Below are positions 6,205-45,110 of a stretch of DNA of 64,000 bases, piece by piece. The stretch spans positions 70,381-134,380 of the IMG/VR virus record IMGVR_UViG_3300034200_001443, one strand, 5' to 3'. Both the position numbers and the translations under genes were made by a program. A model generated the notes under the pieces. That model was not told the DNA's origin. It worked only from the letters and a program-made list of their open reading frames with translations, and made no database searches. Every line of letters begins with the position of its first letter. Within the stretch, counting starts at the first letter, position 1. Source of the DNA: a virus.

Positions 6205-6367
6205 TTTTAGCCTCTTCTTTTTCAAATTGAATTGCTTTATCTAAATCTATGTCGCAATAAGGGATACCCTTGTAAATTGTTATAGGTATCTCACTTGTAT
6301 CTGCCCAGCAAACTTCGCAAGACTCCAACCCCGTGTATGGACTTGGGTGTTTAACTTTTTTACTCAT
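6197..6367 (-). CDS. Small Cys-containing hypothetical protein (56 aa, not in ORF track)
   Basis: MSKKVKHPSPYTGLESCEVC...YC; fills the gap with coupled overlaps. Confidence 0.55.
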   Translation of the reverse strand: MSKKVKHPSPYTGLESCEVCWADTSEIPITIYKGIPYCDIDLDKAIQFEKEEAKNG

Positions 6368-6579
6368 ACCAAAATCCCTTCTAATCCTTCGTCATTTCCA
6401 AAGTCGCTTGGACTTATTAAATCCAGCCACTCCCTAAATAAATAAACCAAACCTTCCTGCTCATTATTCCTTTTCTCAACAAGTCCCTCGTATAAGAAAT
6501 AGGCTTGATCTTCTACTAAATCTTCATAGGTTTCATAAGCTTCAATAAGCCGTAACTCTTCTAGCGTATAGGTTGGCAT
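6364..6579 (-). CDS. Acidic hypothetical protein
   Basis: GGGGTAAAAATG junction with the upstream gene. Confidence 0.6.
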   Translation of the reverse strand: MPTYTLEELRLIEAYETYEDLVEDQAYFLYEGLVEKRNNEQEGLVYLFREWLDLISPSDFGNDEGLEGILV

Positions 6580-6581
6580 TT

Positions 6582-6815
6582 TTACCCCTGCTCTTTAGTA
6601 AAGAGAAACGCAAAACCCGGACCATTACCTTCGGGGTCTTGGGATAAACATAAGCCTTCGCCATTATCGAACTCTAAGAAAGGAATTGGCTCATGGGCTG
6701 AAACTTCCCACCCCAACTCTTCTGCTTCTTCGGCAGTAGCATTTCTAACTTTTATGAGAGTCGCCCCTACGAGCGACCCCCACTCCTTCTCTAAGTATTT
6801 CGATAGGTCGCTCAT
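6582..6815 (-). CDS. Conserved phage hypothetical protein
   Basis: LVGATLIKVR...LSQDPEGNGPG; likely start MSDL. Confidence 0.6.
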   Translation of the reverse strand: MSDLSKYLEKEWGSLVGATLIKVRNATAEEAEELGWEVSAHEPIPFLEFDNGEGLCLSQDPEGNGPGFAFLFTKEQG

Positions 6816-7000
6816 GGGTATAACAAATCTAGGCAAAATTGGTTCATCTGCTCTGTTGGAACTTTGCACTCATCAGGTGTTGTTGCGTCATTAGCCCAAG
6901 CAAACAAACCTAGCAAGATAACGCCAACGGCAATTCGGCGTCTAATAAACTTTGCTTCTGTTTTCACTTTGTCCCTGCTTTCTGTGACTCCCTTAGCCAC
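6812..7000 (-). CDS. Small membrane protein
   Basis: RRR followed by TM helix and two Cys. Confidence 0.55.
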   Translation of the reverse strand: MAKGVTESRDKVKTEAKFIRRRIAVGVILLGLFAWANDATTPDECKVPTEQMNQFCLDLLYP

Positions 7001-7007
7001 TAGTAGA

Positions 7008-7036
7008 ACTTTACACTACTTTCCTGCTTTTTTCTA
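7008..7036 (-). promoter_or_regulatory. Early promoter with conserved spacer (motif duplicated at 7015-7047)
   Basis: TAGAAA-aaagcaggaaagtagtg-TAAAGT on the minus strand. Confidence 0.55.
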
Positions 7037-7234
7037 CTTTCCTGCTTTTTCCTTCTCTTTGGCGTGTCGCTTGGCTTCCTCTAGCAACTCCTCGAAACTT
7101 CTAAAGTCCTGCTCGAAAGAACTCCAACTCTGTGCCAAAACTTTCTCTTTTCTTTTTGAGGAACTAATACGGCGTGATTTTTTAGTAAGTCTCTTTACAG
7201 TTCCGTAAATTGCACTATCAGGCAAACCCCACAT
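7034..7234 (-). CDS. Small basic protein, paralog of 47249..47458
   Basis: Shared WSSF(E/D)QDxR(S/T)FE(E/Q)LL motif. Confidence 0.65.
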   Translation of the reverse strand: MWGLPDSAIYGTVKRLTKKSRRISSSKRKEKVLAQSWSSFEQDFRSFEELLEEAKRHAKEKEKAGK

Positions 7235-7258
7235 TTTTTACCCCTTCCCTTAGTTAAG

Positions 7259-7337
7259 ACTTAGTAGGGAGTCGTATTGTTTCCGCCCCTTGCAAGTTCT
7301 AGGCGTTCAGGTGACCAGCGACTTCCCCCTACTAAGT
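7259..7337 (-). ncRNA. Structured leader or small-RNA candidate
   Basis: ACUUAGUAGGG/CCCUACUAAGU closing stem with an inner hairpin, directly after the promoter at 7346-7374. Confidence 0.45.
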
Positions 7338-7345
7338 TAAAAGAA

Positions 7346-7374
7346 ATAATACACGACTTCCCTGACATTTTCAA
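7346..7374 (-). promoter_or_regulatory. Early promoter with conserved spacer
   Basis: TTGAAA-atgtcagggaagtcgtg-TATTAT. Confidence 0.75.
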
Positions 7375-7469
7375 ATTGACCGCACACGACACGCCAAGCC
7401 CCAAGTTCCCACACTTTTGTTTTTAGATAGAATAAAATTAAGACACAAGCCAAGAGAAAGGGAACTCAA

Positions 7470-7592
7470 ATGGCAAGAGTAAAAGCAAGAGAAGTAATGA
7501 TTTGGATAAATTGCTATCGGTGTGGAGAGCAATTCCAAATTAGACAGATAGATTATTACCGCAACCTAATTTGTAATGGTTGCTTAAAATGA
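7470..7592 (+). CDS. Small zinc-ribbon protein (40 aa)
   Basis: CYRC...CNGC; GAAAGGG RBS. Confidence 0.55.
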   Translation: MARVKAREVMIWINCYRCGEQFQIRQIDYYRNLICNGCLK

Positions 7593-7665
7593 ATTGCCAA
7601 ACCGCAAAATGGCTTTATGAGATTTACGGATACGGAAAAGCTCATGAGTGCGAAAAGTGTTCAAA

Positions 7666-7694
7666 TTGAGAAATGCAGGAAAGTAGTGTATCGT
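7666..7694 (+). promoter_or_regulatory. Early promoter with conserved spacer
   Basis: TTGAGA-aatgcaggaaagtagtg-TATCGT. Confidence 0.7.
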
Positions 7695-7745
7695 TAAGCC
7701 AGTTGGTTAATCATAGGGAATAACCACACTAACAAAGGGAAACAA

Positions 7746-8078
7746 ATGCCAGTTGCAAGTCGTGAAGTAATTGAGGAACAAATAGAAAACGCAGATAGAA
7801 GTCTTGCAGTTCTTTCTATCTTTGCTATGAACTACCACCTAGACCTTTCCAAATGGGAAAGCTTTGCAGATGACGCAGAGAATAATTATCTCGGTAACTA
7901 TGGAAGTCGTAGAACCTTTGCAGAGAATTATGCAGACCGCATTGGGATACTAAACTCAGGGGGCAACGGACAAATAGAAACTCTTGCTCGTTATTTTAAC
8001 TATGACCTTTGGGTGCATAACCTTTTCCAAGACGGAACAGTTTGGGAACATGAAGGTCATTACTTCCAAGCTCTTTAA
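7746..8078 (+). CDS. ardA: ArdA-like antirestriction (DNA-mimic) protein, C-terminal type
   Basis: Acidic; YLGNYGS..FAE.YAD...LARYFNYD.W...L...GHYF matches the ArdA C-terminal pattern. Confidence 0.65.
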   Translation: MPVASREVIEEQIENADRSLAVLSIFAMNYHLDLSKWESFADDAENNYLGNYGSRRTFAENYADRIGILNSGGNGQIETLARYFNYDLWVHNLFQDGTVWEHEGHYFQAL

Positions 8079-8088
8079 GAAGTGAGAG

Positions 8089-8118
8089 TAGCCCCCCAAG
8101 AAATTGGGGGGTTATTTT
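8089..8118. terminator. Terminator between convergent genes
   Basis: GCCCCCCAA-GAAA-TTGGGGGGT. Confidence 0.75.
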
Positions 8119-8687
8119 TATTCTCGGTATTGAGTTAAGAGGTAAAAAGGCTCGGCAGTTTTATTATCAAACTTTGAAGATACGGCGAGCGCAGTTTTAA
8201 TTCCTGATCTTGCATTAGTTAAAGTTCTTTTCTTTCCTTCTGATAAAGCATTAAGAACACCTAAAGCATAAGCTGAACCTGAACCTACCGCATAAGCCCC
8301 GACAGTATCGTGACACCAAGAGAAGTCTTCGCCTATCTCATAAACAGTTCCATTAACTAAAACAATTATTTGGCTTTCGTGTTCCCCGTCCTTTGAGTAT
8401 GAGGATTCCTCAAAACACTTCTTAAGTTCAGGGATAAAGACGGCAGTAATAAACTTATCTAGTTTTACCCCTAGAGTCGAAACAGTGCAGACAGGTGGCT
8501 TAAAGACATGAGCCAACAAGTTAATAGCCCGCACATCACCAGCTACTCCAATTATGTAATTTCCATTCTTAAAAACTTTCCCATTATCTTTCGGCAGAAT
8601 GTAACTACGCCCGTCCTCTTCTGAAACCCTAGAGTCATAGCCAATAACTGACCAGCCTTCACCCTGAACCGCAGCTATTGTTGTCAC
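8118..8687 (-). CDS. Proteasome beta/HslV-like Ntn peptidase (copy 1)
   Basis: N-terminal (M)TT nucleophile, DSR, K and AVGSGS motifs. Confidence 0.8.
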   Translation of the reverse strand: MTTIAAVQGEGWSVIGYDSRVSEEDGRSYILPKDNGKVFKNGNYIIGVAGDVRAINLLAHVFKPPVCTVSTLGVKLDKFITAVFIPELKKCFEESSYSKDGEHESQIIVLVNGTVYEIGEDFSWCHDTVGAYAVGSGSAYALGVLNALSEGKKRTLTNARSGIKTALAVSSKFDNKTAEPFYLLTQYRE

Positions 8688-8699
8688 TTCAATCCTTAC

Positions 8700-8945
8700 C
8701 TAGTAGTTAAAATTATCCCATAATTCATCACGCAAGGCGTATTCATACCTATCGGCAACCATAGAGTTTTTACCCCCTATGTCCTCACTTTCAATAAGTT
8801 TATCTAGTGAAAGAACCGCAGTGTATTCTTCGTCTTCAAACATGATTACTAACTTTGTATCTCCCTCGGCAGGATCATCAACTATAGCCACGACATACGG
8901 AGCGTTAGTTCCATTAGAGTGATAAACCTTTTGCACAATTTCCAT
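8700..8945 (-). CDS. Hypothetical protein
   Basis: ORF track; phage-like YHSNG motif. Confidence 0.6.
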   Translation of the reverse strand: MEIVQKVYHSNGTNAPYVVAIVDDPAEGDTKLVIMFEDEEYTAVLSLDKLIESEDIGGKNSMVADRYEYALRDELWDNFNY

Positions 8946-9035
8946 ACTCTAAAGAATAACCGCATCCAGCTTTCCTGATTTTTACCCCCCAAAAAGAAAC
9001 CCCCCACTTTTCGGTGAGGGGCTTAGAGAGTTTTA

Positions 9036-9272
9036 TTATGCTTCTCCCCATAGTTCTTCTAGGGTGTCGGGTTCATAGGGGTCGCCCATTTCTTCCTTCT
9101 CCTTTTCGAAAGTCCAAGCGTGTCCGCACTCGCACTTTACTTCTGAGGATACATTTCCCCAGTCGTCTGTCATAAAGTCTTCTTCCCAAGCCTTACCGCA
9201 CTCATAGCACTCTACTTCTAGAGTTACATCTTCGGCGTATATACCTGAGCCCTTCATACTTCCTTCGCTCAT
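9036..9272 (-). CDS. Acidic zinc-ribbon protein
   Basis: CYEC...CECGH; has its own promoter and RBS. Confidence 0.65.
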   Translation of the reverse strand: MSEGSMKGSGIYAEDVTLEVECYECGKAWEEDFMTDDWGNVSSEVKCECGHAWTFEKEKEEMGDPYEPDTLEELWGEA

Positions 9273-9302
9273 TTTCTTTCTCCCTTCTGAGCAAGTGTTT
9301 TA

Positions 9303-9331
9303 ATTCTACACTACCTACCTGACATTTTCAA
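9303..9331 (-). promoter_or_regulatory. Early promoter with variant spacer
   Basis: TTGAAA-atgtcaggtaggtagtg-TAGAAT. Confidence 0.75.
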
Positions 9332-9337
9332 TAGGGA

Positions 9338-9436
9338 CACTTCACCCCTGCTAGGGAGGCAAGGGTAAAGTGCGATAGGCATTGGAATACCTATCTCATC
9401 AGGGAGCGATAGGAAGGGAATCCGCGCTACTACCTG
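9338..9436 (-). ncRNA. Three-hairpin element with anti-SD-like loops
   Basis: First stem needs G-U pairs on the minus strand; loops read CUCCCUA and AUUCCCUUCCUAU. Confidence 0.45.
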
Positions 9437-9486
9437 GACTCCTATTCTAGCACCTACGATTTACCGCAAAAAACTTTTTACCCCTC

Positions 9487-9798
9487 TTAACCATTAAAAC
9501 AATCAGGACACTCTAACTCTCTAACCGCACCAGCTACTTCACTATTAACTTTCCCTCTTCCGTAACAAGTCTCGCAATTAGGGTCACCTTCATCTAAGAC
9601 TCCTATGTGATTACAAACCGCTTCTACATCCCACCCGTAGTGATGCTTCATTAACGCCTTTGCACTTCTAAGACAAGCGTCTTCATACACTTCGCCCTTT
9701 TCTACATCTTCTTCTCTTACCGCAACACTTACGATCATAGAGAAATAATCTCCTATAAAGATTACATTCTTCGGTGTAATTAAATTATCCATAGACAT
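9487..9798 (-). CDS. Hypothetical protein with C-terminal zinc ribbon
   Basis: CETCYGRG...CPDC. Confidence 0.6.
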   Translation of the reverse strand: MSMDNLITPKNVIFIGDYFSMIVSVAVREEDVEKGEVYEDACLRSAKALMKHHYGWDVEAVCNHIGVLDEGDPNCETCYGRGKVNSEVAGAVRELECPDCFNG

Positions 9799-9868
9799 AC
9801 CTTACCGCTTTTTACCCCCAACAAACAAGAAACCCCCGCCATTTCTGACGGGGGCTTCCTTTAATTTA

Positions 9869-10093
9869 TTACGCTACCGATACCCATTTAACGGCAGTGC
9901 TTAATACATTGTCGTAATCGCCTGACATACTTTCATCAAGATAAGCATTTATTTCTTCCTGAGAAACTCCTGCCTTTCTAAGTGCGTTAGCGACTCGTCC
10001 CATAATTGCAACGGCATTTCCGTCTTCGCCGACAAGTGCTACTTCAATCTCCGCATACTTTGGTGCATCAATCCCTATAAATTCTCTAGCCAT
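9869..10093 (-). CDS. Conserved phage hypothetical protein
   Basis: LVGEDGNAVAIMGRV..ALRKAG...SGDYD pattern; strong RBS. Confidence 0.7.
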   Translation of the reverse strand: MAREFIGIDAPKYAEIEVALVGEDGNAVAIMGRVANALRKAGVSQEEINAYLDESMSGDYDNVLSTAVKWVSVA

Positions 10094-10123
10094 TTTTCCC
10101 TCCTTTCGTCCCTAGTGTCTTTA

Positions 10124-10291
10124 TTATACTCCCGATAACTCTAATTTCAATTCATTTACAATCTTTTCTGCTTCGTGTGCCGTTAAGTATCTAGCCATAG
10201 CCCTGATAACTACAATCGGATTAGCTCCTGCTTCCAATACTTCGCCGATCACTTTTCTATTAAACTCATACTTATCCAATTCTTTTTCCAT
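10124..10291 (-). CDS. Hypothetical protein (55 aa, not in ORF track)
   Basis: MEKELDKYEFNRKVIGEV... starting at a GGGGTAAAAATG junction. Confidence 0.6.
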   Translation of the reverse strand: MEKELDKYEFNRKVIGEVLEAGANPIVVIRAMARYLTAHEAEKIVNELKLELSGV

Positions 10292-10293
10292 TT

Positions 10294-10686
10294 TTACCCC
10301 TCCTCTTCTTCATCTTTAATAAGGGTGAATGAGAAACCTGCGCCAGTAGGCTCGTCGTGGCTTGACCGTGTTGCAGTAAGGACTGTGCCTTCGTGCTTAA
10401 ACCGTAAATTAAAGTCGCCATTTATAGTTAGCGTGTTTAATACTTTGTCGAAAGAAACTATGGCTTCTCCACTTCTGTGTTGCCAACCCATATTTCTGCC
10501 AGTAATTCTTACGGTGTTCCAATCAACGCCTACTGCCTTGCGCCAGTTATTCATCATCTCTTTGAACAACCATTTAGAATCTTCCCAGCAATCGAAACAA
10601 TAATCGCTAGGCGTATCGTCTTCGTTAGTGCAAGTGCAATCGCTAGTCATTTCTAGCGTAATCTTTTCTTCGGTGTTTATGCTCAT
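10294..10686 (-). CDS. Hypothetical protein
   Basis: CxC...CxxC and SSHDEPTG motifs; RBS. Confidence 0.65.
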   Translation of the reverse strand: MSINTEEKITLEMTSDCTCTNEDDTPSDYCFDCWEDSKWLFKEMMNNWRKAVGVDWNTVRITGRNMGWQHRSGEAIVSFDKVLNTLTINGDFNLRFKHEGTVLTATRSSHDEPTGAGFSFTLIKDEEEEG

Positions 10687-10785
10687 AGTTTTACCTTTCC
10701 CTAGTTTTTATGAACAAGATAATTTTATCATACCTTTATGCAAATAGGGCTCTTTAACTCCGTATTCTTTTTTCCCAGCGTCCAG

Positions 10786-11004
10786 CTAAGAAACAATTAC
10801 ATCATCTAGCCAATAGCCCGCATACTTTTCTCCGTCTTTCATTTCATCATTGAAACTTTCCGCAAACAAGTCTCCCTCTTCGCTATCTATCCAGTTTTTA
10901 CCCTCGGCAAGAGTATCGAAAGAGATATGAGCCCAAACAATTTCTACATCATCATCTTCATTTCTAAGTATTGCTATCGCTTTATACGGCTTATCTATGA
11001 TCAT
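10786..11004 (-). CDS. Acidic hypothetical protein
   Basis: Junction motif at start. Confidence 0.6.
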   Translation of the reverse strand: MIIDKPYKAIAILRNEDDDVEIVWAHISFDTLAEGKNWIDSEEGDLFAESFNDEMKDGEKYAGYWLDDVIVS

Positions 11005-11006
11005 TT

Positions 11007-11312
11007 TTACCCCCCGTAGTCCTCATCTGTTCCATACCCTGCGCTTGCAAGAGTATCTGCGTCCGCTTCTACATCACTCATCTGTGGGATACCTTCGTCC
11101 GTTACCCAATAACCTGTTCCATCTGCGTTCAGAGTATTTTCCTCAATAGTCCAATCCGCTTCGTCCCAGCGAACTTCGTCCGTCATAATCTTGCCGATTT
11201 CATCTATGAACCTCTGCATAACCGCTTCGGCTTCTTCCATACTGCTCGCCTTGATTTCTACTATTGAGATAGTTAGGTCTCGCCCCGTTGAGTAATACTT
11301 TTCTGCGCTCAT
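11007..11312 (-). CDS. Acidic hypothetical protein
   Basis: Start MSAEK; C-terminal DADTLASAGYGTDEDYG. Confidence 0.6.
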   Translation of the reverse strand: MSAEKYYSTGRDLTISIVEIKASSMEEAEAVMQRFIDEIGKIMTDEVRWDEADWTIEENTLNADGTGYWVTDEGIPQMSDVEADADTLASAGYGTDEDYGG

Positions 11313-11422
11313 CACGCTACCTCGCAATCGTGTCCGTATGCCCACTCGCTTGCTTCTATTTCATCTAATAAATCAAACACACGCTTACACTCAACGCATC
11401 TTGCCTTAGTGCTAATTTTCAT
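11312..11422 (-). CDS. Small zinc-binding protein (36 aa)
   Basis: MKISTKARCVECKRVFDLL...YGHDCE; directly after a promoter. Confidence 0.55.
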   Translation of the reverse strand: MKISTKARCVECKRVFDLLDEIEASEWAYGHDCEVA

Positions 11423-11466
11423 TTTTATCTCTTTCCCTAGCCGTTAGCCCCTTGCTAACAATTCTT

Positions 11467-11495
11467 ATTATACACGACCTTCCTGCAATTTCATA
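11467..11495 (-). promoter_or_regulatory. Early promoter with conserved spacer
   Basis: ttgcaggaaggtcgtg-TATAAT. Confidence 0.7.
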
Positions 11496-11596
11496 CGATC
11501 CCCTGCCGTTTCTTTTTTACCCCTCGCCTTTTTACCTTGCCGTAGAAAGCAAAAACCCCCTGCTTTCGCAAGGGGCTTCTGCCGACTAGGGATTGT

Positions 11597-12031
11597 CTAT
11601 TTGGTAAGAACAACTGTGAAAGTGCTTTCCACCTTAGTCTTAGCAAAGACTTCAGGGAAATCCAATTCCAACTTTTTCTTATCTACATCTGTGCGATTAC
11701 GCTCGGAGATTGTAATTCTCGTTGCGCCGTTTAGTGTTCCCTTTTTAGCAACGCCGACCCATTTCTCGGTGCTACCAACTAACACTTTTTCCCAACCCAT
11801 TAGCAAATAAATTGCTTCTGTGGCTTCTTGCTTTTGCTTTTCCAAATCAGTAATCGCTTCACGCAATCTAACTAATTCGGCAACTGTGGCTTCTGCCTTT
11901 TTCTTGTTCTTATCAAGCGAAATAACTTCACTTGTTGCTACAACTGTTGTTTCATCAACAACTGTCTTGATTGTTTTTCCAGCAACCTTTTTAGTGGTGC
12001 TAGTGGTGGTGCTTTTGATAGTGCTACCCAT
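11597..12031 (-). CDS. Hypothetical protein (coiled coil, basic C-terminus)
   Basis: Has its own promoter, RBS and a terminator at ~11551-11580. Confidence 0.7.
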   Translation of the reverse strand: MGSTIKSTTTSTTKKVAGKTIKTVVDETTVVATSEVISLDKNKKKAEATVAELVRLREAITDLEKQKQEATEAIYLLMGWEKVLVGSTEKWVGVAKKGTLNGATRITISERNRTDVDKKKLELDFPEVFAKTKVESTFTVVLTK

Positions 12032-12086
12032 TTGGATACTTCCTATTCATTTCGTCATTTCCTAGGCGTTGTTGCCTAGTAAAAGA

Positions 12087-12116
12087 ATAATAACCTACTT
12101 TCCTGCCTTTCGTCAA
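12087..12116 (-). promoter_or_regulatory. Early promoter with conserved spacer
   Basis: TTGACG-aaaggcaggaaagtaggt-TATTAT. Confidence 0.8.
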
Positions 12117-12140
12117 ATCCAAACCTATCGTGTCGGGAAA

Positions 12141-12344
12141 TTAGTATCCCTCGGCATAGACTTCCTGTTCCTCGTCATAGAGTCCTGTGTAAATAACTAC
12201 CTGCCCCTCATTGTCGTATTCGTGTCCAACCCTTTTGGCTAGGTTATCCACAAGGTATTCGGTAGTAATTGTCCAGCGTGAAATACCAAATCCAATCCCA
12301 GCACCGATAATCATCATCAGTAAAGTGAAACCATTGAAAAACAT
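12141..12344 (-). CDS. Small membrane protein
   Basis: N-terminal TM helix; junction motif. Confidence 0.6.
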   Translation of the reverse strand: MFFNGFTLLMMIIGAGIGFGISRWTITTEYLVDNLAKRVGHEYDNEGQVVIYTGLYDEEQEVYAEGY

Positions 12345-12346
12345 TT

Positions 12347-12604
12347 TTACCCCTTATCCGTATTAGCGACAACTTTTTGTGCGATCTCTACAAAGTCCTC
12401 AGCAGCAGAGCTTTGGAAATACCACTCTCCGTTTTCGTAATTCTCTATTACCTCAGACCATTGTTCGTCCGTTAGTGTTAGGTCAGGCTTTTCTCCCCAA
12501 CCCGAGCCGTATGACTCAATAATCTTTTTATCCCAATAAGCGACAATCAACTCGTCCTCGCCGTCATAACTTTTCAATTGTTCTAATAAATCTTTTACTT
12601 TCAT
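12347..12604 (-). CDS. Hypothetical protein
   Basis: Start MKVKDLLEQL at 12604. Confidence 0.65.
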   Translation of the reverse strand: MKVKDLLEQLKSYDGEDELIVAYWDKKIIESYGSGWGEKPDLTLTDEQWSEVIENYENGEWYFQSSAAEDFVEIAQKVVANTDKG

Positions 12605-12666
12605 TTTTACCCTTCCCCTTTGGTAAGGCACGCCGTTAGACGTGCCCTATAAGTTGTGTGACGCCG

Positions 12667-13103: not shown

Positions 13104-13145
13104 TTTTTTCCCTTTCTGTTCGGTAAGTTTATTGTATCAGATTTA

Positions 13146-13951: not shown

Positions 13952-13996
13952 CAGCGAGATACCCCTTTCGTCATTTGGATAGTTATTATAGCATTT

Positions 13997-14491: not shown

Positions 14492-14536
14492 TTTTTACCC
14501 CTCGTCATTTTGTCTTAGGTCTATTCTACCAAAAAT

Positions 14537-15004: not shown

Positions 15005-15006
15005 TT

Positions 15007-15234: not shown

Positions 15235-15386
15235 TACAAAATCTCTCTTGCGTCAAAGTTCGCCTTATGAACTAGGTCGCCGTATTCCTCTGCCGTCCAA
15301 GCCTCTGCTTGTCGTAGAGCCTCGTCCTTGCTATCGGCTTCCCATACTGTTCTGATACTTGCCGATACTACAACTTCGTATTTCAT
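15234..15386 (-). CDS. Hypothetical protein (50 aa, not in ORF track)
   Basis: MKYEVVVSASIRTVWEADS...; AAATGACGAAAGGG leader and TTGACG/TATGAT promoter. Confidence 0.65.
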   Translation of the reverse strand: MKYEVVVSASIRTVWEADSKDEALRQAEAWTAEEYGDLVHKANFDAREIL

Positions 15387-15703
15387 TTTTTCCCTTTCGT
15401 CATTTGTTCTTGTTATCCAATCCTATCATACCTATCCAAATACCCGTCAATACCAAATTAAAGTTTTTACTTCCTATGCTCTCTTTTTAATTTTTGAGCG
15501 TAATTCCCGGTAGGGTGCTACCTTTTTTTCGGAACTAAAAACTTCTAGTTAAAGGTGTTTAGTTTTACTGTGGTGCGGAAAATAAGTTATTCACTTCCGT
15601 CATGCTTCAGCTAATCCACGCTCACGACTACTTCGGTCTGCTGACTTGGTGGGGAACTGAAAACTTCCACACGATCTTGCGACCCGTTTCTTTTTACCCC
15701 GAC

Positions 15704-15750
15704 AACGAAAAACCCCCTACGCAACACCGATTCCGTAGGGGGCTTCCGTT
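15704..15750 (-). terminator. Large-loop intrinsic terminator after the VWA gene
   Basis: CCCCCUACG/CGUAGGGGG stem followed by U tract on the minus strand. Confidence 0.7.
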
Positions 15751-15752
15751 AA

Positions 15753-15801
15753 TCGTAATCGGGGGGACACACGCACCAATAAGGACGATACCCGACCACG
15801 A
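15753..15801 (-). ncRNA. Hairpin with a loop antisense to the VWA-gene leader
   Basis: 11-bp stem with 2 G-U pairs (minus strand); loop boxes complementary to the mRNA at 17606-17613 and 17621-17629. Confidence 0.6.
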
Positions 15802-15818
15802 AATCTCTTGCCGTTATC

Positions 15819-17600
15819 TCACGCCACGAACCTTTGCCCTGCCGTTGATAAAACTTTCTCGGCGTTCTTGCCGATAATTAAAGCAGACACACTTGGGTCA
15901 GTTATGTTCTCAACAACTTGGGCGTTCGCCGTTCCACAAATATGTTTAGCAGTTGAGCCGTTATCGCCAATCGGTAGCCATAGAACTGCTACGCCGTTCT
16001 TTGAGCAACGAGCAACCCACGCCTTTGCGTTCTCTGTTTCCTCATGTGTGTAGTGTCCGTCAGATACAACAACTAATAATCTTGCGCCCTCACCATTAAG
16101 TAGATTGAGTGCGCCGTCCAAAGCACGAAACGCTTTATCAAACTTTTCAGTTCCGTCAGGGGCAGAATAAACATTTACTTCTTTTAGTCGTTGCCCTGCT
16201 TTTAGAGTTGGGAAAACATCTGAACCATAATAAACCATAGCGCAACGACCCTGAACTCGGCGAACTGCCTCACTCATAATCCAAGCAGTAGAAGCCATTG
16301 GGTTCATAGCAGAACTCATTGACCCTGAAATATCTACCATTACGCCAACTGAAAGTGTTGGTTCATCTGTGTGCTTACGAACTTTTTTTGAGAAAGCAGT
16401 TGGTTGAGAATAAACTCCACGACTTTCCAAAGCCTTAGCCTCAATTACTTTTCTCATGTTTAATTTTCCGGGTGGAACAATACTTTTAACTTTAGTTATT
16501 CCACGCTCACGATACTTTGCTCTTTCTAAAGCCTTAGCAATTTTAACTGCGCTATTGCGTTCTTGACCATTAGGGCTTCGCTTCTCAACTAACTTAGAAG
16601 CAGTATGCGCTTCCCCCGGACCTGAACTCTTTGAGAATACTTGACGAGCAATTTCCTCATTTTTCTTTTGCTCTTTAGAAGTATTGGCTTTAGCAGTTGC
16701 GCTCTCTTTCATATCCTCTGATTGCTTTTGGTCTGCTAATTCATTGGCATTAGAAATAGAAATACTTTCGCTCATCTCGCCAAGCATTTCGCTAATCATT
16801 TCAGCAAAGGCTTCTTGTTGTTCTTGGGTTGGTTGTTCCCCTGCTTCCTCTGCCTTTTCACGAACTAATTTCGCCCACTCAATCGCTAGTGGATAGCAAG
16901 CAGAAATATCAGTATGAGTTGCGTGGTCTTGGAACTGATAAATAATTTCTTTTAATTTCATAACTAAATCAGAACCTAAAATCCCATTGACTTTATCTAC
17001 TAAATCAAAGGCTTCTAATTCATCAAGCGACCCTGCGATAATTCTTGCGTGGCATAATCCAACTAAAGAACTAGCAGAACGAATTGTTGATTGCTCTGAA
17101 AATACTTCTTTGGCTTCGTCAATAATTAAACCCATAGCACTTGCTCGTAAAAAAACTTTTGCGTCAGCGTGGGTCTTAATACCCCATGCTTCTATGCGAC
17201 CTTCCTCTAGCAACATCAAAGCCTCAAACTCATCTTGCTTTAGTGTCTTACCTGCTAGTGGAATATCCCATGCTGAAAACTTTGCGTGGTATGCCTCATG
17301 GCGAATTGCGCCAACTGCTTTAGCAAACTCGTATTGGTTCTTTCGCTTTGTTAAATCGTCAATCATGTTAGGTGTAGTGATTTCGCCAAAGGCTACTTTT
17401 GTATTTACTTCTACTTCTGCGAGAGCAGGTAAGAAACAAGCAGGTGCGCCTTGACCTGCTTCTGTTCCTAGTAAAGCAACTAGGTCAGTTCTATCAGCCC
17501 AAGTATTTACTAATTGAGTAATTTCATATCCAACTCCTAGCCAATCGCTAGGTGTCTTAATCTTGGAACGATTAAGTTCCTGTGGCTTTATGTGTGCCAT
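15819..17600 (-). CDS. VWA-domain protein (CobT/NorD-like) with N-terminal HExxH motif
   Basis: VDISGSM MIDAS motif, VVSDG and HEAYH. Confidence 0.85.
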   Translation of the reverse strand: MAHIKPQELNRSKIKTPSDWLGVGYEITQLVNTWADRTDLVALLGTEAGQGAPACFLPALAEVEVNTKVAFGEITTPNMIDDLTKRKNQYEFAKAVGAIRHEAYHAKFSAWDIPLAGKTLKQDEFEALMLLEEGRIEAWGIKTHADAKVFLRASAMGLIIDEAKEVFSEQSTIRSASSLVGLCHARIIAGSLDELEAFDLVDKVNGILGSDLVMKLKEIIYQFQDHATHTDISACYPLAIEWAKLVREKAEEAGEQPTQEQQEAFAEMISEMLGEMSESISISNANELADQKQSEDMKESATAKANTSKEQKKNEEIARQVFSKSSGPGEAHTASKLVEKRSPNGQERNSAVKIAKALERAKYRERGITKVKSIVPPGKLNMRKVIEAKALESRGVYSQPTAFSKKVRKHTDEPTLSVGVMVDISGSMSSAMNPMASTAWIMSEAVRRVQGRCAMVYYGSDVFPTLKAGQRLKEVNVYSAPDGTEKFDKAFRALDGALNLLNGEGARLLVVVSDGHYTHEETENAKAWVARCSKNGVAVLWLPIGDNGSTAKHICGTANAQVVENITDPSVSALIIGKNAEKVLSTAGQRFVA

Positions 17601-17777
17601 GTCTTTCGTCCTTTTCTAATCGTGTGTCCTTACAAAACCTATCATACCATTTTGGGGGGGATAATCAAACTTAGGGCTTGGCGTGGGGTGGGGAACTTGG
17701 GAAGTGATTTTAGATCCTGGAACCAAAGCTTTAACCCTGCCCTGCGTTATTTAGTTTTATTTACCCCTAGTTATTTA

Positions 17778-17812
17778 GAGAGTGGGAGTAGAGATACCTA
17801 ACTCCCACCCTC
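17778..17812 (-). ncRNA. Hairpin with a loop antisense to the RBS of gene 18912..19370
   Basis: 12-bp stem; loop GGUAUCUCU can pair with AGAGAUACC at 19372-19380. Confidence 0.5.
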
Positions 17813-17840
17813 AAAGCCAACACTAGGTTCTAGGGAAAAC

Positions 17841-18899
17841 CTAGATTTTCGCTGGCTTATGCTCTGCGCCGAACGCCCGAGCAATTACATCAACAACTAC
17901 ATCTCTATCTATTTCAGGTGCGCTCGCAATTAAATTAGAAATTGCGAACTCTGTTCCAAAGACTTCACTTGTATCTCTGAAACCTAGCAACTCACGCATT
18001 TGTGGCGACCATGAGATTTCAGCACTATCGCCTTGTGTGCGCTTGTATAGATTTTGAGCAACGCTAACCATTGTCGCTGGCACTCCTAACTTCTTTGCCA
18101 ACGCCCAATCAGTAGTTAGTTCTGCTTGGATTTGGAAACGAGATATTAACGCTTCACTCATGCGAACCCCCGGAGCATTTGGGTTAGTAGCAGAAACTAC
18201 ATAAAAATCCTCATGGACTTTAATAGTTCCTCTTTCAGGGTTCATTGGAATTGTTATCTCTTTTCGTCCGTCCATTACTGAATAGACAACTGCTAAGGCT
18301 TTAGGGTCAATCAAACCAATCTCGTCAATAAAGAAAGGCTTTCCAAACTCAACTGCCTTAATAAATCCTGCGTCAATCCACTCAAACTTTCCACTTGGGG
18401 TCTGAATAAACGAACCATAAAAATCATTGGTATCAGTATCACCATTACCAATTAAAGTTATTACTTCGTCATTAGAAAAACTTGCTTCTACTAAAGCAGT
18501 TTTTCCTGTTCCCGGAACTCCATAGAAAAATGCGAATTGTGGAGAACCAACGCCCTCTGAAAAGAACTTCTTAGTTGCTTCTCTTGCTCGGCGTAGAACT
18601 GCTACATCAGTATGAACTCCCCATTGGCGAGTGAAATACTTTTGTCCATTAGGGCGAACATAGAACTCATCAGCACTCATGTTATCCACCTCAACTCCAC
18701 TAGGGGTCATAGCACTAACTCGCTCTCTCGCTTTTCTTTTATCGCCACTTGCTCGCTCAACGCAACGACCACTTGGTAGAACTTTTGCGCTAAGTCGCAA
18801 AGAAGTATCCTCATGGACACTTTGGGTCAAGCAATCAGAAACGATATTCCAAAAATCGCCTCTTAAAGAAGCCAACTTGTCTTTGATAATTGTATCCAT
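17841..18899 (-). CDS. MoxR/CbbQ/CobS-like AAA+ ATPase
   Basis: GVPGTGKT Walker A, FIDEI Walker B, ATNP and ALISRF. Confidence 0.88.
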   Translation of the reverse strand: MDTIIKDKLASLRGDFWNIVSDCLTQSVHEDTSLRLSAKVLPSGRCVERASGDKRKARERVSAMTPSGVEVDNMSADEFYVRPNGQKYFTRQWGVHTDVAVLRRAREATKKFFSEGVGSPQFAFFYGVPGTGKTALVEASFSNDEVITLIGNGDTDTNDFYGSFIQTPSGKFEWIDAGFIKAVEFGKPFFIDEIGLIDPKALAVVYSVMDGRKEITIPMNPERGTIKVHEDFYVVSATNPNAPGVRMSEALISRFQIQAELTTDWALAKKLGVPATMVSVAQNLYKRTQGDSAEISWSPQMRELLGFRDTSEVFGTEFAISNLIASAPEIDRDVVVDVIARAFGAEHKPAKI

Positions 18900-18911
18900 T
18901 TTTATTGCCCC

Positions 18912-19370
18912 CTAAGCAATCTCAACAGGAAAGCCAAGTGCTTTTCTGCTTTGGTTGATACGATAAACAACTTTGATAGGTGTTTCACCTTTGTAAATCT
19001 CAATTAAATCATTTTGAGAAGTTTCTATCAGAATTGGGTCATTTACTAATTGCCAATCACCCTCAACCAATCCTGCGAAAATAGAGTTCAGGTGTTCTAA
19101 ACGCTTAGAAACATAAGTGTCTTTAAGACCTAGTTCTGCTAAATCTTGTGAGCCAACTTTTGCTAATTCCTCTGCGAACTGAACAGTTGTCTGTTGCCAT
19201 AACTTCTTTGGCTTTTCTCTAGAAACAATCCTGCGATAAATCTTGGCAGGAACTAAATCACCTGACGGCGTAAATCCGTCAGGGGTAATAAACATTTCTG
19301 TTCTGTATCCCGATTTTGCGAACTCGGCATAAACAGAAACACCCTGAATTGACTTTTCTTTGTCTAGCAT
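18912..19370 (-). CDS. Hypothetical protein upstream of the AAA+/VWA pair
   Basis: RBS and promoter; co-oriented. Confidence 0.7.
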   Translation of the reverse strand: MLDKEKSIQGVSVYAEFAKSGYRTEMFITPDGFTPSGDLVPAKIYRRIVSREKPKKLWQQTTVQFAEELAKVGSQDLAELGLKDTYVSKRLEHLNSIFAGLVEGDWQLVNDPILIETSQNDLIEIYKGETPIKVVYRINQSRKALGFPVEIA

Positions 19371-19470
19371 TGGTATCTCTTTTCGTCATTTACCTAATTC
19401 CCTACGAACTAGGTGTTGGGTCAATCTTACCATTTTCTATCATAGAAGCAAATTAGGCTAGGTGTGTCTT

Positions 19471-19523
19471 AAAAAAGGTTCTACCCCCACACTAAAATGA
19501 CGAGTAAAAGTATGGGGGTAGAA
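19471..19523 (-). terminator. Terminator whose 15-nt loop is antisense to the AAAUGACGA leader motif
   Basis: 15-bp stem with a G-U on the minus strand, U6 tail; loop UUUACUCGUCAUUUU. Confidence 0.7.
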
Positions 19524-19589
19524 ATCTATGTTTCCAGTTCCTAAGAAAGAGAAGCTTTAGAAAACCCTTTCTATGAGAACTGAAAGTTA

Positions 19590-19880
19590 TCAGTTCATAT
19601 CGACTTCGATCAACTGTGCTGGAAGTTCGTCGGCAGGGGGTAAAACTTTGTGCGGTTTAATTCCGTACTTTTTAAATTCTTTTTTATACTTCTTTGAGTC
19701 ACGACCCTCTGTAATCCAATCCGATATCAGTCGTGCAACCAAAAAGCGTTCCTCGTCCTTAGCTTCACGAACTAACAAGAAGTCCTCGTGTATCCAGTTT
19801 TCTGTACCAATCACCGTTATCTTGTCAGCGTTTCCGTAGTTTCCGTCAACATCAAAATAATGTATACGTCCCATGGGCAC
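19590..19880 (-). CDS. Hypothetical protein
   Basis: YFDVDGNYG motif; GAAAGGAG RBS. Confidence 0.65.
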   Translation of the reverse strand: MPMGRIHYFDVDGNYGNADKITVIGTENWIHEDFLLVREAKDEERFLVARLISDWITEGRDSKKYKKEFKKYGIKPHKVLPPADELPAQLIEVDMN

Positions 19881-20021
19881 TCTCCTTTCCTCTAGCCGTT
19901 AGTCTACCTGCTGCTGCAGCGCTGTTACTCGTCTTGCCGTTTTTATTTCCGGGCATCTGGCCTGGATCCAAACTCCTCTTGCCGTTGAGTGGGGCAGGGT
20001 TTTACCCCCACCCCCTCGCCG

Positions 20022-20267
20022 TTATTCAATCCAAAGGTCTCCTCTAATGAACCCGTGTTCTTTCACAACTGCTACACCCTTCATGAATGCTTCGTCTTTT
20101 GTAGTAGCACCTCGGACTAGCGAGAAGTTGTGCTCGCCGTCTTCGTCCGTGTAGCCAACTTGCCATGCTTCCCATGCCTCGTTGTATTCCACCTTGACGG
20201 CTTGCCGTAAGTCCTCTATCTCGCCGTTTCGTAGTTCAATCTCAAAGTAGCCCTCGTTCTTAATCAT
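20022..20267 (-). CDS. Hypothetical protein
   Basis: 4-bp overlap with the upstream gene. Confidence 0.6.
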   Translation of the reverse strand: MIKNEGYFEIELRNGEIEDLRQAVKVEYNEAWEAWQVGYTDEDGEHNFSLVRGATTKDEAFMKGVAVVKEHGFIRGDLWIE

Positions 20268-20869
20268 GCCGTTGCCTTTGCTTTCTCTAGTGCTGGTGGG
20301 CAGTCGTCATAAAGATACTCTTCATACTCTTCAGGGTCTTCCGCATACTGTTCGCAGTTATAGCACTCAACACCAAGAGTTTCCCAAGCCGAATGGTTTA
20401 ACTCGCCACCTTCTTCGGAAACCATCTCGCCAGCCTTGTAGATTTCAATACCCCAGAAATCACAACCAGACTCGTAATACTTATGTTCAATACTTAGTTC
20501 CGGGAAAATCTCTGACAGCGTTTTTGTTGTTAGTGTTGGTGGGGCCCAAGCAGAGTCAAACGAATAACTAATAAACTCATCTCCCTCTTTATAGTCATTC
20601 ATATAAACATTGCCATAGACATCCCACTTAGTTCCCCAAGAGTTGATGTTGTTGTGATACCAGTCGTCTGGACCTTTGCTCTCAAAATCTTTTCCTAGCA
20701 ATGATTCTGAATCAGGAACAGATGGTTTGATATTGGCAAGTGAGTAAAGAACATTCTCTATCTGCTTACCATCTTCATCAGTTATTGGTCTGCCAACAAA
20801 CTCTTTTAACTTCTTGACTGCATCAGCGTTTCCACTAATGCTGATTGTGTTATCGCACCAATTAGGCAT
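20264..20869 (-). CDS. DUF1281/YubB ferredoxin-like (Api92-like) protein
   Basis: MPNWCDN...WGTKWD...FDSAWAPP...Y.E.G. Confidence 0.8.
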   Translation of the reverse strand: MPNWCDNTISISGNADAVKKLKEFVGRPITDEDGKQIENVLYSLANIKPSVPDSESLLGKDFESKGPDDWYHNNINSWGTKWDVYGNVYMNDYKEGDEFISYSFDSAWAPPTLTTKTLSEIFPELSIEHKYYESGCDFWGIEIYKAGEMVSEEGGELNHSAWETLGVECYNCEQYAEDPEEYEEYLYDDCPPALEKAKATA

Positions 20870-21110
20870 TGTGTTCCTCATGTTCTATTACAGACTGAGT
20901 AATCTCTAAACCAAGAGCCTCAATCGCTGTCCCTAAATCGTCAATCGCTTCATCTATATTTTGACGAACATCAAAGTAATCCCATGGATTCTCGTCAGTC
21001 TTTGGTGAGCGAATGTATTGCAAATCAACTGCACATGAAACTGCAATGTTAATTACCTTAATTGCATTCTCATCACCAGCCAAATACTTTTCTGCTAGTT
21101 CTTGATACAT
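20862..21110 (-). CDS. Hypothetical protein
   Basis: Start reassigned to MYQEL (21110), directly after AAATGACGAAAGGG. Confidence 0.6.
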   Translation of the reverse strand: MYQELAEKYLAGDENAIKVINIAVSCAVDLQYIRSPKTDENPWDYFDVRQNIDEAIDDLGTAIEALGLEITQSVIEHEEHNA

Positions 21111-21340
21111 GTTTTCCCTTTCGTCATTTGTTTGGTCAAGCAATAGAAAATCTATCATAGAGATTCCAATGACGCAAGCACCTGAGTCAGGAGTTTCTTT
21201 CTTAACCAAAAGTTTTCATTTCCCCTCCAGGTCCCTGCACCTCCAGGTGGTTTTACGCTCAAAGGCCTGGGCGCTTAACAGCACGCCAATAACTTATTTT
21301 CCGGGCTGATGACCTTCTTCTGGTGTCCCATCTGAATTTA

Positions 21341-21550
21341 TTAGTTCCCGGTGACCTGGTCATCAACGAAACTTGTTTGGGCGAGCGCAATTGAAAACAA
21401 CTCGTTGTACTTCACCATTTGCTCAATGTCCTCCGTGAAGCAAGTGGCAGCGTGCTGCAGCAGATCTTCATCCGACATTATGTTTTCCGGGTCCTCGAGC
21501 ATCACAGCTTCGTCGAACTCGAACTCTATCTTGGTGCGAATCTTCCTCAT
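21341..21550 (-). CDS. Acidic hypothetical protein
   Basis: ORF track; AGGA RBS. Confidence 0.55.
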   Translation of the reverse strand: MRKIRTKIEFEFDEAVMLEDPENIMSDEDLLQHAATCFTEDIEQMVKYNELFSIALAQTSFVDDQVTGN

Positions 21551-21585
21551 TCGATTTTTCCTATCCGTTAGTAGTTTAAAAATTA

Positions 21586-21646
21586 AGGAGACCAGACCTG
21601 CTACACAAAGCGCTAACCGTTAGCGACCCTGCAGGTCTGGCCTCCT
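21586..21646 (-). ncRNA. Long-stem, large-loop RNA element
   Basis: 16-bp stem with one G-U on the minus strand, enclosing an inner CGCUAA/UUAGCG hairpin. Confidence 0.45.
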
Positions 21647-21716
21647 ATAGTCAAGCCGTCTTGCCCGTTCACTGACGCAGCTTAAAGGCGGGCCTGAATT
21701 CTTTTTTCCGGGCTTT

Positions 21717-21872
21717 CTAGCTTGCCGCTTTTTGATTTTCCTCAATCAGCGTTCTTAGTTGACTAGCCGTTGTTATGCTAGCAATGGCACCGACCAAATA
21801 CTCGATACCGTTATCACCCCACTTAGAGCGGACCACATCAGCGAGCCGTGTTTCTAACTCCGACTGAATCAT
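21717..21872 (-). CDS. Hypothetical protein (51 aa, not in ORF track)
   Basis: MIQSELETRLADVVRSKWG...; ATGA overlap. Confidence 0.55.
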   Translation of the reverse strand: MIQSELETRLADVVRSKWGDNGIEYLVGAIASITTASQLRTLIEENQKAAS

Positions 21873-22210
21873 GCCGTCTCCAATGCCAAGTGATAACTTA
21901 TAAAGGTTTCAAATGGAACGGGCGTGCCGTTGTGGATAACTAGTTGTTTCTCAAAGTCGACGGTTGTGGTGTCGTAAGACTCCTCGCCGCCAATGTCGAC
22001 AGACAAGCCGTAGCCTGTTTCTGAATCCCACTGGTTACCGATTAACTGTGAGACAGCAATCCGAATGGCGTAGTTGTTGTCTTCCCATCGTGGCTTTGCT
22101 TTAGCAATTGCATAAGCAAGGTCCGCTAGTTTGGAGTCGCCGCCCCAATGTGAGTAGAGCACTACGTCATGCCCGTTTGATTTGAAATTGAAGTTTGTTC
22201 TTGAACCCAA
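21869..22210 (-). CDS. Conserved phage hypothetical protein
   Basis: TTG start (MGSRTNF) after AAATGACGAAAGG; LYSHWGG motif. Confidence 0.65.
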   Translation of the reverse strand: MGSRTNFNFKSNGHDVVLYSHWGGDSKLADLAYAIAKAKPRWEDNNYAIRIAVSQLIGNQWDSETGYGLSVDIGGEESYDTTTVDFEKQLVIHNGTPVPFETFISYHLALETA

Positions 22211-22368
22211 TTGTTTTCCTTTCGTCATTTAAATCCCTAGGGTCCCCTAGTAAATCTATTATATAACTATCCTAAGGGCATGTGTCAACTACTGACGCCG
22301 AAGAATTTTTGATGTCTTCTGGCCCATCAATAGATAATGTTATTTCCGGGGATCCAGATCTGCAGCTG

Positions 22369-45003: not shown

Positions 45004-45007
45004 CTTA

Positions 45008-45081: not shown

Positions 45082-45110
45082 CTTAAGTTTAAATAAAATA
45101 AATCCTAAAA

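Follow-up and report, generated by a model that had tools for sequence, protein, structure and literature searches.

Small RNAs (sRNAs) that originate in an operon's 3' untranslated region (3'-UTR) and regulate that same operon are known from a few operons. The papers cited next, each for individual passages, describe the closest bacterial cases. In the icaR mRNA of Staphylococcus aureus the 3'-UTR motif UCCCCUG pairs with the same mRNA's Shine-Dalgarno (SD) region, which blocks initiation and gives a substrate for RNase III (PMC3868564); the 3'-UTR-derived sRNAs OppZ and CarZ of Vibrio cholerae repress translation of their own operons (PMC7398697); a 14-bp interaction between the 5'-UTR and the 3'-UTR of the Bacillus subtilis hbs mRNA modulates an RNase Y site in the 5'-UTR (PMC5737220); and, according to a 2025 preprint, B. 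subtilis octamers that resemble the anti-SD sequence repress from hundreds of nucleotides away by pairing with the ribosome-binding site (RBS) (PMC12697547). Our analysis of a 64,000-nt stretch of viral DNA (positions 70,381 to 134,380 of IMG/VR record IMGVR_UViG_3300034200_001443, a single phage contig of 134,380 bp whose second half it forms; hereafter the window) suggests that units of its early region probably carry, after their genes, an exposed loop complementary to the start region of their own first gene, and that this loop would act as a translational brake. The evidence comes from three minus-strand hairpins, called here 17778, 15753 and 19479 by their position in the window.

The icaR mRNA resembles these units in that a pyrimidine-containing 3' motif is the complement of the message's own SD or start region, and the 15753 element, with two boxes that include the SD, is the nearest analogue. 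At both 17778 and 15753 the SD or start region of a unit has its complement in a 3' sequence of that unit, and the two partners covary. Unlike icaR as those passages describe it, the present case is in a phage, involves at least two adjacent units and a hairpin directed at a shared motif, and has a dedicated, covarying hairpin whose loop displays the motif; the match is specific to the gene and goes beyond a generic anti-SD in extending over the spacer or the AUG. OppZ and CarZ are alike in that RNA from the 3' end of an operon pairs with its own transcript, and here the complementarity lies at the translation start; those sRNAs are cut out by RNase E, and Hfq is among the keywords of that paper, whereas the present elements, in contrast to icaR as well, are known from sequence alone. 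The hbs mRNA shares the long-range pairing of both ends of one bacterial message and differs in that the pairing here covers the ribosome-binding region. The c4 RNA of P1 and P7 and the CI RNA of P4 are phage RNAs that act by short complementary boxes on the transcript of the operon they come from; they are processed from a 5' leader and control immunity. A first-pass annotation of this DNA had likened five of its hairpins to these RNAs. Unlike c4 and CI, the present elements lie after genes, and a cmscan search of positions 4000-26000 against Rfam (E <= 1) returned 6 weak matches, none of them C4 and none at the five hairpins, so that we do not place them in that family. No phage example of pairing between a 3' element and a leader was found in open-access papers and bioRxiv. 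The present case would consist of the same logic in several units of one phage early region, kept through about ten sequence solutions in an entire family of uncultured lake actinophages, and by comparative standards the evidence that it offers for long-range mRNA pairing in vivo appears unusually strong. If true, it adds a translation-level layer of control to phage early gene expression and provides compact orthogonal loop/leader pairs usable as synthetic regulators.

The unit that contains an AAA+ ATPase gene has the following features, given in the direction of transcription.

19439..19444, minus strand: putative -10 (TATGAT) of the promoter of the 19370/AAA operon; TATGAT or TAGAAT in 8 of 8 aligned genomes, unlisted by the consensus scan
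19372..19380, minus strand: site 2 in the 19370 leader, AGAGAUACC (-10 to -2), target of the 17778 loop; predicted opening energy 0.62 kcal/mol
18912..19370, minus strand: first gene in the operon (152 aa), without a family match
17841..18899, minus strand: AAA+ ATPase gene (MoxR/CobS-like); Pfam AAA_5, 1.6e-13; phrog_16448, 5.7e-50
17823..17844, minus strand: hairpin B1 (17823), overlapping the ATPase stop codon, with a pyrimidine loop (UUUUCCCUAG)
17778..17812, minus strand: hairpin B2 (17778), 12-bp stem, 11-nt loop, no U tract; z -4.2

The loop of 17778 carries GGUAUCUCU at 17790-17798, the complement of AGAGAUACC at positions -10 to -2 of the 19370 start. The relatives used to examine this match were 21 related loci from IMG/VR and 45 from JGI metagenomes (labels L001, L002 and so on denote such viral or metagenome loci), with an ATPase identity of 48-99%, which gives the divergence needed for covariation tests. 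Named phages gave no DNA-level match to the region by megablast; the closest named relative, the lake metagenome phage DSL-LC01 (OQ999401, which is L001), was found by protein search, and has the same gene order as the window and a VWA protein, annotated as 'cobalamin biosynthesis protein', of 46% identity.

Nine close genomes keep the hairpin 3' of the ATPase gene, and its loop differs among three groups, with the 19370-type start region differing correspondingly. The window and L002/L003 have GGUAUCUCU or AUUGGUAUC with GAGAUACCAAU (the pair in L002/L003 being AUUGGUAUC with GAUACCAAU), L004-L006 have CUUCUCUCU with AGAGAGAA, and L007 has CAUGGGUGU with ACACCCAUG, the AUG included. A 9x9 matrix of loops against 19370-type starts gave matches of 8-9 nt for a genome's own or a same-group start and of 3-6 nt across groups, and by run length the 19370-type start ranked first, alone or in a tie, among the 17-43 starts of each of the nine genomes. 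The co-change of loop and target that the first-pass annotation had proposed to look for is thus found at 17778, as it is at 15753 and, in the form described below, at 19479; the matches of 17823 and 9338 to the leaders of other operons lack it.

In a second test, which involved no choice of loop, the 93 nt that follow the ATPase stop were set against positions -30 to +6 of the first gene in all 43 genomes containing both, which gave 34 distinct pairs. Thirty of the 34 contain a perfect match of at least 8 nt (longest match 6 nt in two pairs, 7 in two, 8 in 17, 9 in seven, 10 in three and 11 in three), and the matching sequences fall into about ten unrelated groups across the family. Among distant relatives the match to the operon start region, of 8-11 nt, is borne by the first hairpin, the one that overlaps the stop codon, as in L047, L050 and L054, where GUUUCCGUCCU matches AGGACGGAAAC over 11 nt. 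With 12 group representatives, at least 8 nt were reached by 9 of 12 own pairs and by 6 of 132 cross pairs, and none of 200,000 permutations reached the observed sum. As a negative control, loops of the second hairpin (17778-type) were compared with the ATPase gene's own leader and showed no excess (8,758/20,000).

The unit of the VWA gene lies just downstream and is organized in a similar manner.

17641..17668, minus strand: promoter-like site (TTGATT-16-TATGAT with TG) 5' of the VWA gene; the -10 is kept in relatives
17606..17629, minus strand: VWA leader boxes, GGACACACG at 17621-17629 and AAGGACGA at 17606-17613, the latter being the SD region
15819..17600, minus strand: VWA-domain (CobT-like) gene, 593 aa; Pfam VWA_CoxE, 3.7e-5, under the curated cut-off
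15753..15799, minus strand: element C1 (15753), 12-bp stem directly after the VWA stop, ~27-nt loop with UCGUCCUU at 15781-15788 and CGUGUGUCC at 15765-15773
15708..15747, minus strand: classical intrinsic terminator of the VWA unit, with U5; loop not conserved and without a leader match

The loop of C1, UCGUCCUU-N7-CGUGUGUCC, is complementary to the VWA leader GGACACACG-N7-AAGGACGA, whose two boxes have predicted opening energies of 0.74 and 0.36 kcal/mol. The duplex between element and leader is predicted at -29.4 kcal/mol in the window, where the own leader is the best of 42; this energy was reached by 0 of 500 dinucleotide shuffles and by 0 of 2,537 other 29-nt windows of the early region. 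Eight of nine genomes give duplexes of -25.8 to -30.7 kcal/mol. The stem has 12 pairs in relatives, of which 2 are compensatory, with many exchanges among G-U, A-U and G-C. Box 1 is almost invariant in both loop and leader, and box 2 covaries: UCGUCCUU:AAGGACGA in the window, UUUCCCUUU:AAAGGGAAA in L004, UCUUUCCCU:AGGGAAAGA in L006 and UCGUCCUUUUC:GAAAAGGACGA in L007, with weak versions in L005 (6 nt) and L008 (7 nt, -17.6 kcal/mol). The test without loop choice, applied to this unit over 32 distinct genomes, found at least 8 nt in 7 of 11 own pairs by group and in 14 of 110 cross pairs, and 106 of 200,000 permutations reached the observed sum. DSL-LC01 has an unrelated 13-nt pair here, GUUUACUUGUCCU with AGGACAAGUAAAC, which 0 of 31 cross pairs reach, and L009 carries a compensatory variant at one pair. 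The adjoining terminator (15747-15708) was tried as an antisense loop and rejected (best run 5 nt, p = 1.0), its loop being variable both among relatives and in a contig from an RNA library. Between genes of the early region, a 14-nt motif (AAGUUUUCAGUUCC or its complement, with at most 2 mismatches) occurs in both orientations, at 15666 and 15544 (minus strand) and at 15461, 19528, 21210 and 22493 (plus strand), and relatives conserve motifs of this type in the gap of 432 nt that follows the VWA unit; they are possibly operator sites or sites of further long-range RNA pairing.

On DNA, elements of this kind are inverted repeats that bracket genes, and might be read as sites for a protein that bridges the start and end of a unit or as recombination sites. 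We consider this extremely unlikely: two units of one genome use unrelated sequences, and the family about ten, each of which would need its own protein specificity; one copy always lies in the loop of an RNA hairpin, the stem of which covaries and depends on G-U pairs that only one strand can form; and some matches persist through G-U pairs (L021, L030).

That strand dependence holds for all five hairpins that the first-pass annotation had placed on the minus strand, which are present at 19523-19479, 17812-17778, 17844-17823, 15799-15753 and 9373-9337; what was called 15753 is the 3' end of the 12-bp stem with a ~27-30-nt loop and is distinct from the classical terminator next to it. The predicted folds of minus and plus RNA are -24.5 and -19.8 kcal/mol for 19479, -21.5 and -17.5 for 17778, -8.2 and -6.6 for 17823, -16.5 and -6.5 for 15753, and -23.6 and -16.5 for 9338; all five fold better as minus-strand RNA because of their G-U pairs, as had been claimed. 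Out of 200 shuffles each, the number that folded as well as the minus-strand form was 0 for 19479, 0 for 17778, 2 for 17823, 11 for 15753 and 0 for 9338. The same annotation had regarded the hairpins as reused 3'-UTR or terminator hairpins, a description that suits 19479, which has the form of an intrinsic terminator (U6 after CC), as 15747-15708 does (U5); it does not suit 17812-17778, 15799-15753 and 9373-9337, which are not terminators since none has a U tract.

The hairpin at 19479, hairpin A, differs from the other two in that its target is a motif shared by eight leaders.

22222..22230, minus strand: leader motif AAAUGACGA, TTG start 22210
21121..21129, minus strand: leader motif AAAUGACGA, start 21110, of the gene that opens the unit closed by hairpin A
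19479..19523, minus strand: hairpin A, terminator-like, with a stem of 14-15 bp and a loop of 15 nt (UUUACUCGUCAUUUU), followed by CC and U6; z -7.0
19383..19391, minus strand: AAAUGACGA in the 19370 leader (site 1), the target of loop A; opening predicted to cost 0.41 kcal/mol
15397..15405, minus strand: leader motif AAAUGACGA, start 15386, invariant in 7 genomes
14502..14510, minus strand: leader motif AAAAUGACGAG, start 14491, where loop A has its best match (11 nt and, beyond a GGG bulge, GUAAAA)
13968..13976, minus strand: leader motif AAAUGACGA, start 13951
12052..12060, minus strand: leader motif AAAUGACGA, start 12031
6389..6397, minus strand: leader motif AAAUGACGA, start 6367

The loop segment CUCGUCAUUUU is complementary to AAAAUGACGAG of the 14491 leader, and 9 nt of the loop are complementary to AAAUGACGA, which stands 9-19 nt before the 8 starts. 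An alignment fold of 8 genomes (alifold) gave 14 stem pairs, 4 of them compensatory, with 12 of 15 loop columns invariant and poorly conserved flanks. The heptamer AATGACG occurs over 30 kb in 13 sense and 2 antisense copies; one antisense copy is the one in the loop of hairpin A, and the same is found in all 9 close viral loci. Among the 32 metagenome loci with a called start the loop is canonical in 20, a recognisable variant in 4 and absent from 8 distant ones. L008 and L041 combine the loop UUCGUCGUUU (A>G) with the 19370 leader AAACGACGAA (U>C), a compensatory change by way of a G-U intermediate, and the other leaders of L008 retain the U of the motif. The L037 loop pairs with the same motif in a shifted register that also covers GAAAGG. 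DSL-LC01 has a leader motif of its own, AACGACGAAAGG, in 10 exact copies in 25.8 kb, and a strong hairpin at a different genomic place with UUCGUCGUU in the loop. A plus-strand small open reading frame (ORF) or an antisense promoter inside loop A was considered and rejected, the ATG and the -10-like hexamer not being kept in relatives.

Several observations concern these leaders in their own right. The DSL-LC01 hairpin (L001:25030-25070) lies 3' of an annotated endonuclease gene, and in its loop stands the complement of the leader motif of that phage (AACGACGAA); cassettes that join a promoter to a leader, TATAAT-AGAATCA...AACGACGAAAGGA, number at least 10 in the same 25.8 kb. Three stereotyped ribosome-binding leaders recur in the early region of the window, for example at starts 15004, 14491, 12344, 11004, 10291, 7234 and 6579: GGGGUAAAAA-AUG before internal genes, AAAUGACGAAAGG after promoters and CUAGGGAAAGG as a third class. 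Through its 5' half (UUUUAC), loop A also has complementarity to the GUAAAA of the GGGGUAAAAA class.

Conserved motifs at many translation starts have been described in actinophages before. Cluster K mycobacteriophages carry start-associated sequences (SAS/ESAS), with a 13-bp motif at 11-19 gene starts and of unknown function (PMC3203893), and the legend of Figure S3 of the same paper notes for Adephagia, Angelica and CrimD a single start-associated sequence on the complementary strand. The likeness to AAAUGACGAAAGG here lies in the conserved motif at many starts; as a difference, the passages of PMC3203893 considered here mention neither a copy in a hairpin loop nor pairing. The pairing proposed here, if true, would explain the conserved start-associated leader motifs of actinophages.

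Because loop A faces a motif before 8 starts, and is almost invariant in a terminator-like hairpin with a U6 tail, it bears most directly on the proposal of the first-pass annotation that the hairpins form a network across several operons. In that form, stable RNA fragments from terminators or 3'-UTRs would act mainly in trans and close many early leaders as a multi-target network or timer. The different genomic place of the DSL-LC01 loop fits a diffusible regulator, and, at another locus, the three C-rich loops and the own -10 element of the 9338 RNA also speak for the proposal. We nevertheless consider a trans network rather unlikely as the main explanation, given that the best-supported pairs, 17778 and 15753, target a sequence found in one leader each, that of their own unit, that the matches of 17823 and 9338 to leaders of other operons do not covary, and that for processed fragments the RNA libraries offer short low-depth contigs only. 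Since the targets of 17778 and 15753 are unique to the leader of their own unit, the pairing would be self-targeting and not cross-operon; it appears to be mostly so throughout, with one shared-motif hairpin (19479) and no broad trans network.

The matches claimed for the two remaining hairpins are present, as they are for 17778, 19479 and 15753: UUUCCCUAG of 17823 is complementary to CUAGGGAAA of the 10686 and 11422 leaders, and UCCCUAGC of 9338 to GCUAGGGA of the 11422 leader. The first is unsupported as a regulatory pair, for it is the same within the close clade and falls to 6 nt in L007 and L008 while the leaders stay unchanged; the match of 17823 to the 19370 leader is likewise weak in the close clade (7, 4 and 3 nt in the three groups). 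The second belongs to a different kind of RNA.

9336..9443, minus strand: conserved three-hairpin RNA of ~108 nt, following a conserved -10 TAGAAT; 34 pairs, 7 compensatory, in 6 genomes

The 9338 hairpin (9337-9373), which had been taken for a 3'-UTR hairpin, is the third arm of this separate, promoter-proximal structured RNA. It is flanked by promoter-like sites, the TAGAAT -10 upstream and TTGAAA-17-TAGAAT at 9331-9303 downstream, and its loops carry CCC runs: UUCCCUU, UUCC (so in the window; YCCC in five relatives) and CUCCCUA. The 9338 loop retains a 7-8-nt complement to CUAGGGA(A) leaders; a comparison of the RNA with six start-region families showed no own-versus-cross difference and no covarying target, and Rfam gave no match to it. 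Stand-alone sRNAs in which several loops expose C-rich anti-SD motifs (the UCCC motif of the RsaE/6C type) occur in Gram-positive bacteria. The 9336-9443 RNA is a candidate for a stand-alone sRNA with C-rich loops or for a long leader of the 9272 gene.

Seen within this one genome, the complementarity stands out much less, and several observations weigh against the self-targeting brake. A test of 22 intergenic hairpins against 42 start regions (-30 to +6), with 300 loop shuffles each, gave p = 0.060 for the 9-nt match of the 17778 loop to the 19370 start (energy p = 0.047), p = 0.063 for the 11-nt match of the 19479 loop (energy p = 0.29), and non-significant leader matches for 17823 (p = 0.23) and 9338 (p = 0.12); none of the four survives correction for 22 tests. 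The shuffled-loop check put forward in the first-pass annotation thus comes out clearly for 15753, marginally for 17778 and 19479, and negatively for 17823 and 9338. When whole intergenic regions are compared with the 2.2 kb upstream, ~2 chance 9-10-mers are expected, and such matches do occur. A global RNAduplex scan of 149,316 window-leader pairs (25-nt windows) yielded many duplexes of -25 kcal/mol; the 15753 element ranks 7th and the 17778 pair is outside the 25 best listed, and therefore raw energy does not single them out. Its top pair (-34.1 kcal/mol, 11590-11566 with the 11422 leader) was judged a G/C-stem artefact, being the buried 5' arm of a terminator stem, and a complement search by k-mers over whole regions was likewise set aside since it gave chance 9-15-mers from G/C-rich stems (an 11-mer in L018/L020 was stem-derived and dropped). 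The comparative data have weak points of their own. The related genomes are non-independent, so that the effective sample comes down to about ten sequence groups in the AAA operon and to a smaller number in the VWA unit; the L004-L006 pair of the AAA operon is of low complexity (CU-rich against GA-rich); L001 and L030 have only 6 perfect pairs (8 with one G-U in L030), and L045 and L019 have 7; the second-hairpin loops of L010-L019 are without a match, and only the first hairpin matches there. The 19370 leader next to hairpin A has drifted to AUGAACGACA in L004-L006, where the other leaders retain the motif. The 17778 hairpin, without a U tract, may be intercistronic and not a true 3' end. Four further hairpins in early intergenic gaps (9860-9827, 11583-11548, 9024-8997 and 12649-12624) have 4-6-nt loops with no anti-leader content, and therefore the design is not universal. 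Four lake RNA libraries, finally, cover the AAA and VWA genes only in part, with contigs of low depth for which DNA carry-over is possible.

It could be supposed from these figures that the hairpins are ordinary terminators or stabilising structures and that the matches arise by chance between purine-rich leaders and pyrimidine-containing loops. The shuffle values of 0.06-0.23, the many strong duplexes of the global scan and the fact that at least 8 nt are matched by 3 of 22 reverse-complement control loops, against 7 of 22 real ones, all agree with such a view. We hold it to be highly improbable in the light of the own-versus-cross tests between genomes, the conservation of the hairpin A loop and the two 15753 controls. 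The comparative data raise the 17778, 15753 and 19479 pairings to far more than chance, and at these three of the five loci the complementarity of the minus-strand transcripts is best explained as RNA-RNA pairing that is real and selected.

The paired segments overlie the SD, the spacer or the AUG (-10 to -2, -7 to +2 and -6 to +3 in the AAA operon; the SD box in the VWA leader), which makes occlusion of the RBS the most likely effect. Opening is predicted to cost 0.04-3.5 kcal/mol for the loops and 0.4-0.7 kcal/mol for the target sites, against -9.3 to -14.8 kcal/mol gained per box in the duplex. The 17778 loop would pair with positions -10 to -2 of the 19370 start, thereby acting on the operon of the 19370 gene and the AAA ATPase; the two boxes of the 15753 loop would pair with the SD and leader of the VWA gene just upstream; and the 19479 loop would pair with the AAAUGACGA motif of the unit that it closes (start 21110), of the next unit (19370) and of six further early leaders. 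The start site would be free while the message is still being made, and the 3' element, once transcribed, could pair with the start region within its own molecule or on another copy, or do so as a 3' fragment. Binding of the 30S subunit would then be blocked, and decay perhaps triggered, so that each message would limit itself to a certain burst of protein. From the conserved -10 elements and the terminator at 15747-15708 we infer that both partners lie on one transcript, and, as to the sign of the effect, that it is repression. The genes concerned encode the AAA+ ATPase, the VWA protein and proteins of unknown function.

Covariation proves pairing, not its sign, and a positive role can be imagined in which the 5'-3' pairing protects the ends of the message from ribonucleases or masks a cleavage site, after the manner of the 14-bp hbs interaction and its modulation of RNase Y cleavage (PMC5737220, the passages on hbs). 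This appears quite unlikely, for the segments that pair cover the SD, spacer or AUG, where 30S binding would be blocked. The translational brake may, tentatively, be part of a family-wide rule by which every early unit has at its end a 'private' loop that, after transcription has finished, folds the message back onto the unit's own RBS, and by which the 'public' 19479 hairpin, complementary to the leader that eight early units share, terminates the early phase as a master brake that needs no protein; the two together could give lytic actinophages a self-timing temporal control made of RNA only.

Between ~4.5 and 24.7 kb of the window every plausible gene is on the minus strand, and most are small ORFs without assigned function. 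The early-region proteins with a family match are the AAA+ ATPase, the 593-aa VWA protein, an HslV-like peptidase and a DUF1281_C protein; for the 152-aa protein, neither PADLOC nor NCBIfam returned anything informative. The stretch 15380-19640, with a G+C content of ~42%, is almost fully represented (89-100% of sampled words) in 14 DNA runs from lake water, each from a different study and 7 of them marked as possible sources, and pieces of it are present in 6 lake or freshwater RNA libraries. The contigs of the four lake RNA libraries mentioned above are short and cannot show transcript ends or the bridging of a leader and a 3' element; their uncovered parts, ends and joints were excluded as evidence. 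The host of DSL-LC01 is predicted to be actinobacterial by its authors, in the passages of their paper that concern it (PMC10611076). Our guess for the present phage is a host among low-GC freshwater actinobacteria, which would fit the G+C content. To our knowledge, actinobacteria lack Hfq.

Some further segments are worth recording. A conserved structured segment of ~80-110 nt at 7260-7340 (minus strand) has counterparts at L004:18972-19075 and L006:19454-19585 that are 74-85% identical by blastn; it lies within the leader of the 9272 orthologue in L004-L006, has no Rfam match and looks like a movable, riboswitch-like leader element. Positions 7235-8117 form 883 nt without a convincing minus-strand ORF and with a strong predicted fold (minimum free energy -235.7 kcal/mol, with no shuffle control), and a plus-strand ORF of 110 aa lies at 7746-8078. 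Outside the early region, two adjoining tRNA genes, Arg (TCT) and Met (CAT), are found on the plus strand at 44931-45082.

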